64,000 bases of DNA from Giardia intestinalis. Lineage: Eukaryota. The notes under the pieces are model-generated. The model was not told the origin of the DNA, made no database searches, and was given only the letters and a program-made list of their open reading frames with translations. The DNA lies in NCBI GenBank assembly GCA_000002435.2, contig CM018793.1. One strand, 5' to 3'. Within the stretch, counting starts at the first letter, position 1, and every line of letters begins with the position of its first letter. Positions 8,820-60,700 of the stretch are shown here, one piece after another. A program made the translations under genes and the position numbers.

Positions 8820-8891
8820 GGGGGCTTAGCTCAGTGGTAGAGCACTCGACTCCAGATCGAGCGGTCATCGGTTCAATCCCGGTAGCCCTCA
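8820..8891 (+). tRNA. tRNA-Trp (anticodon CCA)
   Basis: 72-nt cloverleaf folded by hand. Acceptor GGGGGCT/AGCCCTC. D arm GCTC-AGTGGTA-GAGC. Anticodon stem CTCGA/TCGAG with loop CTCCAGA (anticodon CCA). T arm ATCGG-TTCAATC-CCGGT. Discriminator A. No encoded CCA and no intron. Confidence 0.8.
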
Positions 8892-25479: not shown

Positions 25480-25906
25480 CGTGACCTTTCTTTATAGCAC
25501 TAGCAATAGCCGCAGAGAAAACTGCTGGGAAAAGCAGATATACAGACCACATGTAAATGGGGTTGAGTCCACTCTGGTAATAGACCTTTTGACATTGCCA
25601 AAGAGCTATAAGGGGATAGAGCCATTCTCTCATAGTGACCAGTAAGAGTCTCTATGAACATGTTCTTATACCACAGGATAGGTCACATCAGTAGGAACCT
25701 ATAGCGGTATATGACACAGCGTCATGTTGATGAATGACGGTGTATCCTTGATCAGTAAGGACGAGTAATGAACAGGCCACGTATGATATAGCTATTTCAG
25801 CAGAATGGAGTCTCGATCATGAAGTATTGTTGAGGATTTCCGACTATGTAAACGGTCACGAGCCATTAGCCGTCCTGTTCGTCTCGCCTACCAGCCCAGC
25901 ACGTGC

Positions 25907-27391
25907 ATGCGTGGATATGCGCCACTTGCAGAGCCCCTGCTGGTTGAACTAGACCCTGCACGCCAAAAACTTATGAAATCAATAAGCACTCTCTGTCTCA
26001 GCGACCAGGCGGCGCTCTTCGACTTGCTTTACTCCGACGATGTCAGGAAGCAGGAAGAAGGACTGGCAATGGTGAACGTCATTCGTCTGAGGGGCGCTGT
26101 GGAGGTGGGATTGGACGGAACGGCAGCCCTGGTTGCGGCCCGGCTTTCCGACAACGAGGCCGCCGACGAGCACGCCCTGCAGTCTAGCTATTCTGTGGCG
26201 CTAATCCGGACCGTCAACGGGCTAACAGACCGCCAGCAGGTCGGCAACTATATGACCTCCATGAAGACCCTCGCGGGGCGCATCAGCCTTCCATACGCAC
26301 TCATCGATGTCCGCCACGAGGCGACGCACCAACAGCTCCCGCCTCTTCCGGCGCTGCGGCAGAGCGCGGCGCTCCTGCTTCACTGGCTGCGCCACAACTA
26401 CTGGGAGCCGCTTCTGAACGAAACGCACGAGAACACCGTGAGCAGGTGCGTCCAAGAGCTGCAAGGGTTTTTCGTGTCTCCGAACCAGCTCCATCCTTCT
26501 GAGTTTGTGGACAGGCTCATCGCTGCAAATTGCCTGACGGGCCTTCCTGGTGCCGTGGTCCGCGTCATATACAGGAACAGGCTCAGCCCGGCCGACGTTT
26601 TTGGGGAGTCAGGGAATCGCACGGAGTTCAGACGGTTTCTGGTCGGGGCCATAGAAGGAGGCCTTGCCGAGAGCTTTCGGAGCAGCATCGTCTCCCCGCT
26701 CTTTGCACGACTGTTTTCTGATGCGGTGCTATCACACTACTGCATCGTCAACATGGTGATGCACCAGTCGGGCAAGCTCACAAATCCGCAGCAGTTCGAC
26801 CTTTGCATCAGGTGGCTGTACGCCATTCTGGATCACATCAGGGCGGAGCCAGACAAGAGCGTGGAGCAGCTGCATCTGAAAGCAATCCAGAAGGCCCTGC
26901 TGGCTGTCCTGGCAAACGCAGCCCCTCCGTTCCTTCTTTCCTTGGAGCAGGCATACAAAAAGGAGGGCACGCAGTTTACTCGACTGGACACTAGCGCAGA
27001 GTTCACCCTGGATGACGTGATTTCGCTAACGGAGCCCGTGGCCTCTACGTCGACCGTCCCGGGCACAGCGCAGGTGTCCATCAGCGACACGCCGTCCGGC
27101 TGCTTAGTGCAGTTTCTGGTGGACGTTCTGCACAAGTATCATCTGAAGCTGACGGGGCTGCAGATACTGCTGGGGGTCCAATCCAGCGACGCAAGCGTCA
27201 TCATCCACCGCTCCCCAGCAAACGAGCTCATTCCCATAGGCGTCACAAGTCTGCTGGGCTCGATGTGGACAGACGACTCCCGCCTCCGTCGCTACTACTA
27301 TGGGGGTCTGGATGCAGATGCCCCCGTCCTCCACAGGGATGGAGACGCGCCGTTGGAGGCGAAGCTCACCGAGCCTCCCCTTAAGAAATAG
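25907..27391 (+). CDS. LAS1: Las1-like pre-rRNA (ITS2) processing endonuclease, HEPN nuclease domain
   Basis: Colinear match to the Las1 family core. LQSSYSVALIRTVNGLTDRQQ aligns with yeast LRLSYVMALIRFVNGLLDPTQQ. SLPYALIDVRHEATHQQLP aligns with GLPSWFVDLRHWGTHERDLP and includes the RHExxH HEPN motif. LLHWLRHNYW aligns with ALSWLYDHYW. Confidence 0.8.
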   Translation: MRGYAPLAEPLLVELDPARQKLMKSISTLCLSDQAALFDLLYSDDVRKQEEGLAMVNVIRLRGAVEVGLDGTAALVAARLSDNEAADEHALQSSYSVALIRTVNGLTDRQQVGNYMTSMKTLAGRISLPYALIDVRHEATHQQLPPLPALRQSAALLLHWLRHNYWEPLLNETHENTVSRCVQELQGFFVSPNQLHPSEFVDRLIAANCLTGLPGAVVRVIYRNRLSPADVFGESGNRTEFRRFLVGAIEGGLAESFRSSIVSPLFARLFSDAVLSHYCIVNMVMHQSGKLTNPQQFDLCIRWLYAILDHIRAEPDKSVEQLHLKAIQKALLAVLANAAPPFLLSLEQAYKKEGTQFTRLDTSAEFTLDDVISLTEPVASTSTVPGTAQVSISDTPSGCLVQFLVDVLHKYHLKLTGLQILLGVQSSDASVIIHRSPANELIPIGVTSLLGSMWTDDSRLRRYYYGGLDADAPVLHRDGDAPLEAKLTEPPLKK

Positions 27392-27409
27392 GACTGCATT
27401 TACTGCTCC

Positions 27410-28465
27410 CTAATCCTTCTGCTGGAACAGCGCCACACCAAGGCGTATCCACTTGTTCACATGCTCGTTGCTTGGCAGAAGAACGTCCAATATGTAGTTG
27501 CTACTGTGCCCGGTGGTCGTCAGAACTCCCCGGCGGAGGCTTGTACGGTAGACTGGGCATGGGTAACGATTGCTGACTTCAAGGTCTGTATTTCTGGTTG
27601 GGATTAGCACGATGTTCGGCATCTCCTCGAAGAGGACATTTGGACGAGCATCGGCGAGACCCGCTTCGGACCAGGAGGCGCACTGGAGAAAGAGCCCGGA
27701 TATTGTCATGGCATGCTCCAGTTCCACGGGCTCGCTGGTTACCTGGAAGTCGAAGACCAGCTCGTCGATTGCTATCTTAGCACGCCTGGCGTAGTTTTGT
27801 AGAATGCCCGTCAGAAATGCCTGCGGATAGCTGAAGCCGGAGAACCAGACAACCTTGGGAACCCCTTCTATGGTCCAGCTTCTGATAAAGCTCACGCGCT
27901 CCTGCAGATCCACAATCTACCGCGACAAGGGTATGACCGATGGCCACGCGGTCGCCTCCCAGACGCTCGGCACCTGGTTCAGCTGCATCGCGTCCAGGAC
28001 TCCCTCTGTCTCCTTCGTCATGATAATGAGCCCCTTGATCACCCGCTCTGCGTTGACCAGGGTGCTCCTCATTATCCGCAGCAGCTTGTTATAGCGAGCG
28101 CACTCCTGCACAAGGACTGTGTTCATGGACTGGTAGTAGTTGGTGGGGTACTTCTCGTTCACCGCCTCCTCGTCAAACAGGGCCGGCAGACCGTTAAGGA
28201 TGGCGTTGATCTGTGCCAGCTCGCCTCCAGTGGAGCAGCTGGGCGAACGCGTGGCAGATCCGCCTTCTGAGTGGCTGTGCATCTTCAGCATAATGTCAGA
28301 AAGCTCCTTTCCGGAGTTTTGCGCCAGAAAGATGGTAGCGTTGCTGTCTAGCCCGTATATTTCGGGCAGGTCGTTATCTGGCCACTTTTCTGTGACGTGC
28401 TCGATAATGTTCTCGCGGGTGATCGACAGATGGGAGGGGAATCCGTATGTGTTGTTGACATATGA
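27410..28465 (-). CDS. Orphan C-terminal fragment of a dynein heavy chain (~350 codons) interrupted by an in-frame TAG at 27917-27919. It is either a separately encoded or trans-spliced terminal piece, or a pseudogene.
   Basis: The frame is open from 28465 (TAA at 28466-28468 just upstream) to the stop at 27410-27412. It contains dynein C-terminal blocks: PEIYGLDSNATI, SEGGS…LPALFDEEAVNEKYP, YYQSMNTVLVQE…IKGLIIM, WPSVIPL, WFSGFSYPQAFLTG, GLFLQCASW, YPCPVYRTSLRRGVLTTTGHSSNYIL, EHVNKWIRLGVALF. The TAG falls where homologues have Tyr or Trp. The first ATG in the frame is at 28291. Confidence 0.6.
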
Positions 28466-28623
28466 TTAAAGCACGCCCTAAGTATCAATATAACTGTAAC
28501 GCATCTACCACTTCCTTATAAGTGAGCAAATGCAGCAACCTGTCTACTCACCAAGATCAGTTGATTCTCCTATAAACACGCCCTTGGTTTAAAATAAATT
28601 TACTGTGTGCATCGAAGATTGGG

Positions 28624-29550
28624 ATGGAGCAGTTCTTGGAGCCACCTAAGGAGTTCAAGAAGCCCGAAAAATGCATACTTAACCAGCGCTACAACATGGA
28701 TCATTTCAGACACAGCGCCGTCTACGTTCTGATCACACGGTTTATTGCGCTGGTTAGCGATAGTATTCAAGGCCTTCCATTCGGCAACGCTCCCGACCCC
28801 AGTGAGAACTGCAAAAAGCTGCTAGCCATCCTTGAGAAGGCACACCAGATGTTTAAGGACACTCCCCCTGTTTCTCGTGATGTCCGTTATGGTAACCCGT
28901 CGTTTAGAACTTTTGTTCAGAAGCTTCGTGAGAGCTGTACTGCGTGGCACCAGGAGATCCTGCCAGCGCAATACCAAGAAGCAACCATAGAACTAGATGC
29001 CTACTTCTTGGACATGTTTGGTAGTGAGAAGCGTCTCGACTATGGAACAGGCCACGAGCTGAACTTTGTCTGCTGGGCCTTCTCGTTTATTCGCCTCTCC
29101 ATTTTGTCTGAGCGCGACGATTTCATCAACATTGGCCTGCGTCTATTTCCTGCATATCTACAGCTAGCCCAAGACATCCAGAACATCTACACACTTGAGC
29201 CGGCAGGCTCTCATGGAGCATGGTCAATGGATGACTACAACATGCTCCCCTTTGTCTGGGGAAGCTCGCAACTTATCAACAGGAGATTAAAGCCAACAGA
29301 TATATTCTTCCCAGAAAAGCTCACCGAGCATAAGGACAATCTGTACATTATGATGATACAAAATATAACGACCGTGAAAACGGGAGACCTGCGAATAACG
29401 TCTCCTTTTCTCTCTGAAATCCACCTGCAGCAAGATACCACCTGGAGCCGAATACACACAGGCATGATGAAGCATTACCAGAACGAGGTTCTTTGCAAAT
29501 GGCCCATAATGCAGCACTTTTGGTTCGGAAACATTATACCATTCAAGTGA
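28624..29550 (+). CDS. PTPA: Phosphotyrosyl phosphatase activator (PTPA; PP2A activator, peptidyl-prolyl isomerase)
   Basis: Conserved PTPA blocks: DYGTGHELNFVCWAFS, FDMFGS, LPFVWGSSQL. Confidence 0.85.
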   Translation: MEQFLEPPKEFKKPEKCILNQRYNMDHFRHSAVYVLITRFIALVSDSIQGLPFGNAPDPSENCKKLLAILEKAHQMFKDTPPVSRDVRYGNPSFRTFVQKLRESCTAWHQEILPAQYQEATIELDAYFLDMFGSEKRLDYGTGHELNFVCWAFSFIRLSILSERDDFINIGLRLFPAYLQLAQDIQNIYTLEPAGSHGAWSMDDYNMLPFVWGSSQLINRRLKPTDIFFPEKLTEHKDNLYIMMIQNITTVKTGDLRITSPFLSEIHLQQDTTWSRIHTGMMKHYQNEVLCKWPIMQHFWFGNIIPFK

Positions 29551-57700: not shown

Positions 57701-60700
57701 CATGCACGGATAGTCTTCCAAGCACCTAGCAGACATTCTTCCTCCTTGAAGCGTGTCACCGAGGACTAGGCATCATGAGGTGAGCGCAGCCAGAGGCAAA
57801 TCTCCTTGTATTCTTGCTTACTACTAATAGCAAGTATGCAAGCGAGTACACAGGCTCTTGACGAGTGCATTGTGATTTAGGCCAGTCATCACACTAGGGT
57901 TATGACACTTGATGCACAGATTTCTATTTTTAGCTTTGTATGCATATCTATGTTTCACCTTGAAAGACGGTGAAGTGCTCTGCGGGGCCTTTTTGGATAT
58001 ACAGCTGTCACTATAGCTGATGGGGGAGTAGGTGCGAAGACCTTATTCTTAAACAAAAGCATCTCTAGTATAACCGAGCGCTGTCTTCCATCAAAGTAGA
58101 CACCTTAGATGGAATGACATCTACTCTATTTACCATGGCATTGTGCGGGCCTGTATACGCTACTAGAGAAGGATCCTGCAATATCTGCTTAATTTGTCAG
58201 GCGTATACGTCTCTTGTTGTAGCGAACGCAGTGGTAGAGACAATCATCGCCGGAAGGTAATAGGACGTGCTAGCTCAGTGTAACTTTGTACAGGTAGAAG
58301 CTACAGTACGCAACCAAGAGCATAACGCGCCAGCTGTTCATGCTACTCTCCTCCCTTGTATTGCTGTGCTTACGAGTACCTGTACTGCACTGTGTGTCAG
58401 ACTGTGGCACAGAGTATCCCCAGGCTACTCATTCAGTGGATTAAAGCTAGAACGACTGATCCTATGGACAGATGGGCATCCCAAGAAGACGGCAGCCGTT
58501 ATTGTTGTTCCGGATTTTTTAGTACTCAAGCACCAACCCTATGGGGGCACCCTACTTTCCAAGTCTCTGCGCCCATATCGAGGCGTGTTGTCTGGATGGC
58601 CTAGTCATGGCCACAAGGATGATGCAAAATGGTGGTCGTTCGCAGGCCCGGCCCCAATTCGCCCCTAGCCCTAAGTCACACTCAACTGGTGCAAGATGCT
58701 CTTCTTCACCGTAGGTATGCCTTTCGCTAGATCGACAAGCTGCTTGTAACAGGCCTGCCTTGCTGACCAGCTCTGCTGGCACTTGGTTCCCCTCTGATCA
58801 CTTAAGGGCGTAGCCCCAGGCTGGGTCCACGAGACAGCGCATGCTGATGGCAGAAGACAACACAGCTCTTCTCAAATATCTCGACCTGTCAACTAGTGCG
58901 GTCCCAAAGCGCACTGTGGGTCTTGGTAGACACGCAAGTACGAATCCGGACACTTTGAGATGCTAAGATTACTCAGCAAGGACAACACAATTCACCCTGC
59001 TTCATCTGAGAGGTCAAAGCCCCAGCTATTCGGAAGCCCAGCATCAATATTCATCTGGCTTATATACTCGGGTGCGCCTTGTTGGAAACCACATTGAAGA
59101 CTCCAATTCAGCGGTTACCTGGACTCACCATCCATTACAGTCGTGCCACCATCAGGGTTAAGTTTCCTACCTCACCTGTGGTCTGTTACAAAGGCATAAT
59201 TCGCGACCGGATGCAAAGGGCTTGATCTTTTCGGTACACTATGGCTACCGGTGTACTTTACTGGCTCACTGACTCTGCCAGCATCTTCAGAGACAGAGAC
59301 GCGCCACCATCACAGATCACACAGCCCTCTGCACATCCTGGAAGGGCTCTTGTGTTGTGCAACGTCAGATCCTGCCTGTCTGATACAGAACACATGGTAC
59401 TGGACGGCTAGAGAGGGAACGATGGGCGCTTGCATCCCACACCGAACCAGTCTGACTGCACTTGGACCGTAGCTCTTTGATCTCGCTGCCATAGACAGCG
59501 AAGGACACATCCTTCTGGAGATGGGATCTCTCGAGGGTTGGCTCATGGTTCAGTCTGAGCCCAGAACTCTAGGTATGGAGTGCACCACGCAATGATGAGG
59601 ACAGTAGTAGCAGGGACACTGTTTGGACCAGGTGGCCTTCTCACATTCCTCATTGCACGTGCCTGCATCCGATGCGGTCCACTCCTTCGATATGTAACAG
59701 TTGTGGCCCGGATGGCTAGAGTCTGGACCCACAAGCTATTGCGCCTGTTGTAGCGGCAAAGAAGACGAGTCACTTGCTTGTAGGCTTTGTCTACCTTCAG
59801 CCCTATCCAGATCTGCCGTTGTGCTAACACTACTGGTACCACGCGGCCTGTGTGATGGTCATGTCCCCTTCCTGCCATTCCTGATACCAAGTCCGATAGG
59901 AGCATCCAACAGAATATCCCTGGCGTTGTGCAGTCTTCATATGATGATCGCGTTAGACTCACTGCGCACCCACCGTTGCAGTGGTTGAACTGCTGGGCTC
60001 GGGAACTGCTGGATACTTTAATACTGATAGACGATGCCAGAACAAGCAAAGATAAAAGGCCTCAAAACCCCCTGCCCGTGAATGGACTCGTTATGTGCAA
60101 CGTGCCTACCCCTATCGTGTCATGTAAGACAGTAGGATTTTGCTGGTACAGTGCATTGATACAGTGATGATGCAGAGAAGGCAGCTCTGACTTACATAGC
60201 GATAGAAAGCCTGGTGATATAGATAGCGACATTATGTGATGGCGGACCCTAGCCGATAGGCCATGGGGATACAGAGCCCTTGCAACAAAGCTGTTCTTCA
60301 CATGAAATAGTAGAGTAGCATGATGCACCACAGGAGAGAGTCCCGCTTCCTCGTTCTGTCTGTTACATTATGGCCCAAGCATCGAACTTGCTGATAGCTC
60401 CTTATTCATTCCCCTATGAAGCCCTGGACACCCATTTAATCATACTACCTAGCCCTGCATAAAGATAAAACCCCACACTTAGCACTAATGATTGAATACC
60501 TCATTCTGCCATAACGTTTCCGGTGCACTGATTCCAATCTCGAGTAGCTAAGTGGATGGATGCATCCTTGTCAGGGGTAGTGTAGGCATGAAAGACTAGA
60601 CCCCAACGACAGGTTTGCACTTTAGCTTCTCTTGTTTACTCCTTGGTGGCGTCTTATATCTCCACTCAGGCGTGTGTTCTGAGATCGCTATAAGGCATAC

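Follow-up and report, generated by a model that had tools for sequence, protein, structure and literature searches.

A piece of dynein heavy chain with no dynein gene around it could be a working part of a split gene or the remnant of a gene that lies elsewhere. For Giardia intestinalis the first reading has good precedent. Fragmented (‘split’) introns in Giardia dyneins were described by Kamikawa (2011) and Roy (2012), as summarised in PMC5100056 and PMC5224939. These two papers and PMC10711314 report an OAD gamma gene in two pieces and an OAD beta gene, named OADalpha/GilDHC4 by Kollmar, in four. We examined such a piece in a stretch of 64,000 nucleotides from contig CM018793.1 of assembly GCA_000002435.2, isolate WB (hereafter, the window), where the end of a dynein frame is found between genes for Las1 and PTPA. 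The locus calls for caution, as an isolated dynein fragment in an organism with real trans-spliced dyneins invites the same interpretation.

The dynein frame and its internal TAG

The dynein sequence is on the minus strand. Directly after a TAA at 28468-28466, one frame extends from 28465 to a TAG stop at 27412-27410. With W placed at an internal TAG, the resulting 351 amino acids match Pfam family PF18199 (Dynein_C) from end to end, covering model positions 2-308/309 with E=2.6e-91 and 306.5 bits (cutoff 25.7). When three full-length dyneins were compared with all 64 kb by tblastn, a single matching stretch was found, which begins at 28459, 28456 or 28417 and extends down to 27413-27431, so that the window holds only the last ~345-350 codons of a dynein. 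These results agree with a preliminary description of the locus, made from the sequence alone, which had reported one frame open from 28465 and only the last ~350 dynein codons between Las1 and PTPA; alignment to full-length dyneins now places the start of homology at 28459.

The frame has no in-frame ATG before codon 59 (28291). The sole ATG near the start of the fragment (28459-28461, minus strand) is out of frame and opens an ORF of ~36-38 codons that stops at a TAG inside the fragment in both WB and P15; this ORF is probably meaningless. The 2007 annotation of WB cut the dynein frame at the internal TAG into XP_001705868.1 (124 aa, ‘Dynein-like protein’) and XP_001705869.1 (99 aa, ‘Dynein heavy chain like’). 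In the 2020 annotation the accessions of Las1 and PTPA (KAE8304629.1 and KAE8304630.1) are consecutive, which leaves no annotated protein in between. The locus of the dynein fragment gave no match when the window was scanned against Rfam.

Table 1. Coordinates of the features discussed, given in window positions except where a contig is named.
Feature	Position	Strand	Basis or remark
Clipped 3′ part of a dynein heavy chain gene (unprocessed duplicated pseudogene)	27410-28465	-	Pfam Dynein_C and comparison with the parent gene
In-frame TAG, codon 183 of the fragment	27917-27919	-	One G-to-A change from TGG (Trp)
Copy of a ~2.57-kb segmental duplication: complete Las1 and last ~350 dynein codons	25887-28460		blastn against L018, L019 and L020
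Right boundary of the duplication, start of dynein frame and homology	28452-28460		blastn and tblastn
Left end of the duplicated block, 16-20 nt before the Las1 ATG	25887-25891		blastn; L012 ends exactly at 25891
Las1 gene copy in the duplicated block, 494 aa	25907-27391	+	Exact match to WB KAE8304629.1 / XP_001705870.1
PTPA	28624-29550	+	Exact match to WB KAE8304630.1 / XP_001705866.1
Locus-specific spacer from fragment to PTPA	28461-28623		Dynein frame interrupted by stops; Giardia intron 3′ motif absent
Parent dynein, regions of note	L021 7143-17124; L022 1663-11652; L023 11642-21623		

The internal TAG falls in a column where the remaining Giardia copies have W and other dyneins have either W or Y; the preliminary description had likewise noted Tyr or Trp in homologues. 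TGG is present in the pieces and the parent genes (see below) of both DH (A2) and P15, in an assemblage-B-like parent and in contigs L019 and L003, and TAG in the window, in L009-L018 and in L020. Because nine independent SRA assemblies (L009-L017) contain the TAG, it is real and not an assembly error; the eight of these that cross into the flank on the PTPA side (L010-L017) are 99.8-100% identical to the window. The earlier suggestion of a sequencing error fails for the same reason, and the codon was already visible in the 2007 annotation. It had also been proposed that a sense codon in other isolates would reveal a misassembly, yet DH and P15 read TGG and the TAG is nonetheless real in WB. 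A difference between strains, likewise suggested, is only apparent, given that the TGG contigs are best explained as mixtures of two paralogous copies.

A duplicated block and a full-length gene beside a second Las1

Three contigs that carry a 540-aa form of Las1 (L018, L019 and L020) match the window by blastn at 99.6-99.96% identity over a block of ~2.57 kb, and beyond both ends of the block they are unrelated to it. Identity to L018, a WB-like contig with the flanks of the parent locus, is exact over 25891-28452. Two loci likewise share the block in each of two other isolates, at 99.2% identity over 2613 bp in P15 and at 98.5% over 2574 bp in DH, with the same right boundary in both (28460/28461). 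The similarity to the parent loci thus reaches past the coding fragment to include Las1 and an 18-nt spacer, at 98.5-99.96% identity. A leftward extension of the duplication was sought at the protein level, and none was found.

The start of the dynein frame and of its homology (28459-28465) coincides with the boundary of the duplication (28452-28460). On the parent side of this junction the frame continues upstream as ...ADDLKSLGKTVNDTYGFPSHLS..., where the window reads a stop followed by SYVNNTYGFPSHLS; in the DH comparison the parent has ...SAFYADDLKSLGKTVNDTYGFPSHLSITREN... and the window a stop followed by SYVNNTYGFPSHLSITREN. Two other accounts of the sequence around this point were considered and set aside. 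Contig ends at 28452, 28442 and 28415 had been candidates for transcript starts or splice junctions, and are better explained as assembly breaks at the boundary of a repeat. A possible AT-AC-type acceptor at TCAACAACAC (~28450) was rejected, as the parent sequence simply runs on in frame there.

The parent gene is represented in contigs L021, L022, L023 and L018. In the WB-like contig the dynein frame continues for at least 2818 codons upstream past the boundary, and its sole interruption is the same TAG, present in L018. Intact dynein heavy chains lie beside the second Las1 in P15 (ACVC01000040.1, 5565 aa) and in DH (AHGT01000011.1, 5631 aa), and an assemblage-B-like contig holds a dynein gene of 5631 aa. 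The parent genes of P15, DH and the B-like contig encode the full set of dynein Pfam domains and have TGG at the position of the TAG. The fragment therefore corresponds to the last 351 codons of an inner-arm-type dynein gene of 5565-5631 codons located elsewhere. The preliminary description had named a second intact full C-terminus elsewhere as the mark of a plain pseudogene, and such C-termini are found in the full-length genes of P15, DH and the B-like contig. It had also proposed a search of the genome for separated 5′ pieces, in place of which the DH, P15, B-like and WB-like contigs reveal a contiguous gene with the same C-terminus. The ‘orphan’ piece is a clipped 3′ end, copied only because the gene lies tail-to-tail with Las1.

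Among solved structures, the fragment scores best against DNAH1 and Chlamydomonas DHC2 (253-254 bits), followed by DNAH7 at 240-242 bits and then by DNAH12 and DNAH3; I1 beta reaches 133 bits, and the OAD beta, gamma and alpha chains 72-117 bits. The upstream 2818 codons of the parent rank the same way, with inner-arm chains closest. As judged by this ranking of scores, the gene belongs to the single-headed inner-arm type (DNAH1/3/7/12; the Chlamydomonas IAD chains). Because DNAH1, DNAH7 and Chlamydomonas inner-arm chains are closest, the gene is not part of the published split OAD beta and gamma genes.

The parent dynein is long for an inner-arm chain, at 5565-5631 aa versus ~3960-4510 aa in the solved inner-arm chains, and within the 2818 codons visible in the WB-like contig the main match to solved chains starts no earlier than about residue 780. 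These features suggest that the parent carries large lineage-specific insertions or a long divergent tail.

Las1 exists in two forms in WB, DH and P15, and in assemblage A the forms of 494 and 540 aa are on different contigs. Between the window protein and the second WB copy (KAE8301731.1, annotated at 540 aa, with an N-terminus 46 codons longer) there are three residue differences, T177, N237 and T383 in the window and A, D and A in KAE8301731.1. At all three the window state is derived, as judged against both DH copies. The duplicated block carries Las1 in full, and this copy may still be in use. A separate peculiarity was seen in P15, where the two Las1 copies (476 and 472 aa) differ by a clustered indel and substitution patch at codons 398-403 in L021 (window-equivalent 27100-27115). 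The P15 genome was reportedly sequenced with 454, and the patch may be a sequencing artefact.

The order PTPA-fragment-Las1, the insertion site and the boundaries are common to WB and DH (assemblage A) and P15 (assemblage E). Since the arrangement and the right boundary are held in common by these three, the duplication predates the split of assemblages A and E. No dynein sequence is present beside PTPA in contigs of assemblage B, which reach ~470-510 nt upstream of PTPA at most, and assemblage B may be without the duplicate. There is a break in synteny between A and B just upstream of PTPA, and collinearity of assemblage B with the window begins only at 28588. In two assemblage-B assemblies (L006 and L007) the sequence breaks off ~470-510 nt before PTPA, within AT-rich non-coding DNA to which nothing in the window corresponds, and a third (L008) includes only ~160 nt of sequence upstream of PTPA.

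Probable homogenisation and decay of the truncated copy

Paralogous copies of the block differ within an isolate by 0-0.4% (WB-like), 0.5-0.8% (P15) or 1.5% (DH). The corresponding values for orthologues are 9-10% between assemblages A and E and 21-26% between A and B. The copies thus cluster by genome and not by locus, which we take as the signature of concerted evolution. From this pattern we infer that repeated interlocus gene conversion keeps the copies alike.

For the WB and P15 fragments, dN/dS is 0.06-0.07 on every segment, including the part upstream of a frameshift in P15. We attribute the low ratio to conversion, which would give the fragment the selected substitutions of its parent. 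The same ratio had been considered as a sign of a functional, translated piece, and this interpretation was dropped because parent copies were found and the copies cluster by isolate.

Disabling lesions of the truncated copy arose independently in two lineages, the TAG in WB and a deletion of 1 bp in P15. The parent genes of P15, DH and B are intact. The deletion (~28285) cuts off the first 60 codons of the P15 fragment from the rest. It is absent from the P15 parent, as are three nonsynonymous changes that the P15 fragment carries. A cis-intron spanning the P15 frameshift was also considered, and was rejected because there are no usable splice sites there. Compared with the haplotype typified by L019, the window copy has D5N, W183 to stop and V199I together with four synonymous changes, and the derived changes of the L019-type haplotype are two synonymous substitutions only. 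The DH fragment is uninterrupted and has six synonymous and three nonsynonymous changes of its own. Counted as nonsynonymous or frameshift versus synonymous, copy-specific changes number 4 versus 1 in the P15 piece, 3 versus 4 in the dynein part of the window (plus 3 Las1 amino acids) and 3 versus 6 in the DH piece, which are small numbers and are confounded by conversion.

Collectively, we consider it very probable that 25887-28460 is a partial segmental duplicate whose dynein end is truncated and non-functional, and which has been homogenised with its parent by conversion. On this model, a 2.57-kb block would have been copied next to PTPA in an ancestor of assemblages A and E, bringing with it Las1 and, convergent with Las1 on the other strand, the last ~350 codons of a very long single-headed inner-arm-type dynein gene. 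The copied dynein end would have come without a promoter, a start codon and the upstream ~5200 codons, and so would be a truncated, non-functional gene fragment. Interlocus conversion from the functional parent would repeatedly overwrite the fragment and make it look like well-kept coding sequence. Between conversions, disabling changes would gather, such as W183 to TAG in WB and the 1-bp deletion in P15. The cell would obtain its functional C-terminus from the intact parent gene, next to the second Las1. One of the possibilities raised in the preliminary description, that of a dead duplicate, is thus borne out by the intact parent.

Duplicated pseudogenes that reside in segmental duplications and are homogenised by gene conversion include CYP21A1P (with CYP21A2) and GBAP1 (with GBA). 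The Giardia fragment resembles them in that part of a parent gene was copied with a neighbouring gene and clipped at the boundary of the duplication, in its nonsense and frameshift lesions, and in that paralogues are closer within a genome than orthologues are between lineages. It differs in that the genome is that of a protist and very compact, the block is only 2.57 kb long and the co-duplicated Las1 is complete. Duplicated pseudogenes and interlocus conversion are analysed in general terms in PMC2978362 and PMC3790853. In the WB reference genome, 6.9% of the sequence is duplicated, mostly as short stretches of one gene, and 306 pseudogenes are annotated (PMC7000408). The present block belongs to the same genome and the same size class as those duplications, although that paper makes no mention of this block or of dynein. 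The duplicated Las1 appears in the 2020 annotation as two proteins, whereas the dynein fragment has no protein accession there. We conclude that the piece is an ordinary duplicated pseudogene fragment in a small segmental duplication.

The block offers a compact and clear-cut case of concerted evolution in Giardia, with a 2.6-kb duplicate that is older than the A/E split and yet remains within 0-1.5% of its parent. Under concerted evolution of this kind a pseudogene takes on the appearance of purifying selection (dN/dS 0.06), and short-read assemblies yield chimeric ‘alleles’. Variant calls, dN/dS scans and comparisons between isolates over 25887-28460 and its paralogue are unreliable unless the copies are phased.

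One further observation concerns the DH parent (L023 10119-12692, compared with L005 and L022), which has the assemblage B state at several sites (window-equivalent positions include 28307, 28076, 27956, 27484, 27076, 26209 and 26035). The remaining A and E copies, the DH fragment among them, share the alternative state at these sites. Ancestral polymorphism, conversion history and introgression are each possible explanations.

The WB parent codon and other readings of the fragment

The assignment of the TAG to one of the two WB copies depends on how the contigs were assembled. Logan contigs mix the copies, as is evident from the WB Las1 paralogues, which differ at three residues that occur in every combination among Logan proteins. 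In the dynein part, 13 A1-like contigs vary at only seven sites (28247, 28199, 27938, 27918, 27871, 27668 and 27644), where the alternatives are always those of one pair of haplotypes and change in contiguous blocks. The second haplotype is present at three adjacent sites in L003, at two in L017, at one in L009 and at all seven in L019, which has TGG and the flanks of the parent. The simplest reading is that two co-resident haplotypes represent the two paralogues, with TAG in the window copy, which comes from the long-read reference, and TGG in the parent. We therefore favour an arrangement in which the WB TAG is confined to the truncated copy and the parent is TGG, which is probable on the basis of these haplotypes. 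A TAG in both WB copies, as L018, L020 and all WB-type contigs would suggest, was considered and rejected in view of the three-residue difference in Las1, the Logan mixtures and the block mosaics of two haplotypes.

The most durable alternative accepts the truncated duplicate and proposes that the full-length WB parent has the TAG as well, through conversion from the pseudogene or in the reverse direction. L018 and L020 carry the TAG and are anchored in parent-specific flanks, and TAG-type ORFs are far commoner in Logan contigs (55 for P0107 and 13 for P0108) than TGG-type ORFs (3 for P0110 and 1 for P0112). However, these contigs are mixtures of both copies by the Las1 residue combinations, the variation among the 13 A1-like contigs is limited to seven sites that fall into blocks of two haplotypes, and L019, the sole contig that is fully of the second haplotype, joins TGG to parent flanks. 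Moreover, at the three checkable Las1 sites the WB parent is ancestral and the window copy derived. We regard a TAG in the WB parent as unlikely, though deserving of serious consideration. If it were there, the reference strain would make an inner-arm dynein without its last 168 residues. A specific version of events, in which the nonsense codon arose in the dead duplicate and was copied by gene conversion into the full-length dynein of WB or of some sublines, is doubtful; if true, a flagellar motor of the standard laboratory Giardia would be truncated by a lesion that came from a pseudogene, and A1 lines would be polymorphic for this truncation.

The fragment could instead be kept for a function of its own, as a polypeptide that consists of Dynein_C only and begins at an ATG encoding MLKMH, or as 3′ antisense or terminator context for the convergent Las1. 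DH and some contigs indeed contain an uninterrupted ORF of 293 aa that is labelled as a dynein chain by NCBI submitters, and the deletion specific to the P15 piece is found in contigs from SRR445167/8, which are possibly RNA-seq data. However, the ORF is interrupted in both WB and P15, at a different position in each, and the MLKMH start is out of frame in P15. Nonsynonymous and disabling changes are also enriched among the P15 and WB copy-specific changes, which are few and confounded by conversion. A retained function is very improbable in our view.

Even less credible is the reading that the fragment is the terminal exon of a split dynein, either joined to its upstream exons by trans-splicing or made as a polypeptide of its own that would assemble with the remainder of the chain. 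The fragment shares with Giardia OAD beta and gamma both its host organism and the isolated position of a dynein heavy chain piece among unrelated genes, and Giardia does use such an arrangement for these two chains (PMC5100056, PMC5224939). The low dN/dS, and the conservation of the first 58 codons without a preceding in-frame ATG, would also fit a terminal exon. However, the OAD beta and gamma genes have no contiguous copy and their pieces are trans-spliced at canonical motifs, whereas the window piece is a redundant copy of a gene that exists in contiguous, full-length form in DH, P15, B and the WB-like contig, lacks the motif, and is of the inner-arm class, which is the wrong one for this reading. 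The start of the fragment is the boundary of a duplication, and the fragment has a frameshift in P15 and a nonsense codon in WB.

The sequence upstream of the fragment also argues against splicing. A scan of both strands of 28400-28650 revealed no CTRACACACAG-type 3′ intron motif with two or fewer mismatches, consistent with the preliminary description, which had found no Giardia-type 3′ intron half upstream of the frame. No AG dinucleotide occurs between the upstream stop and the start of homology. The spacer at 28461-28623 is poorly conserved and changes about as fast as silent sites. A protein search, in which the longest match was 602 aa, returned no protein that joins other sequence to the fragment, although this is weak negative evidence. 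The genuine terminal piece of a split dynein that the preliminary description had considered is therefore not what the contiguous gene elsewhere, the duplication boundary and the inner-arm class indicate.

That the locus or its TAG is an assembly artefact can be practically dismissed: repeats such as this block are easily misassembled, and the 2007 WB assembly is apparently without the 540-aa Las1 copy, but the order PTPA-fragment-Las1 recurs in the 2007 and 2020 WB annotations, in DH and in P15, and nine Logan contigs cross into the unique flank (L003 and L010-L017), eight of them with the TAG and 99.8-100% identical to the window.

Two features elsewhere in the window may be recorded. An exact Giardia intron branch and acceptor motif, CTGACACACAG, is present at 58390-58400 on the minus strand in an ORF-poor stretch, where by a rough estimate ~0.06 exact matches would be expected by chance in such a window; no obvious coding exon follows it and it has no Rfam match. 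The sole match in the window at the Rfam gathering threshold is a tRNA gene at 8820-8891 on the plus strand (RF00005, 66 bits).
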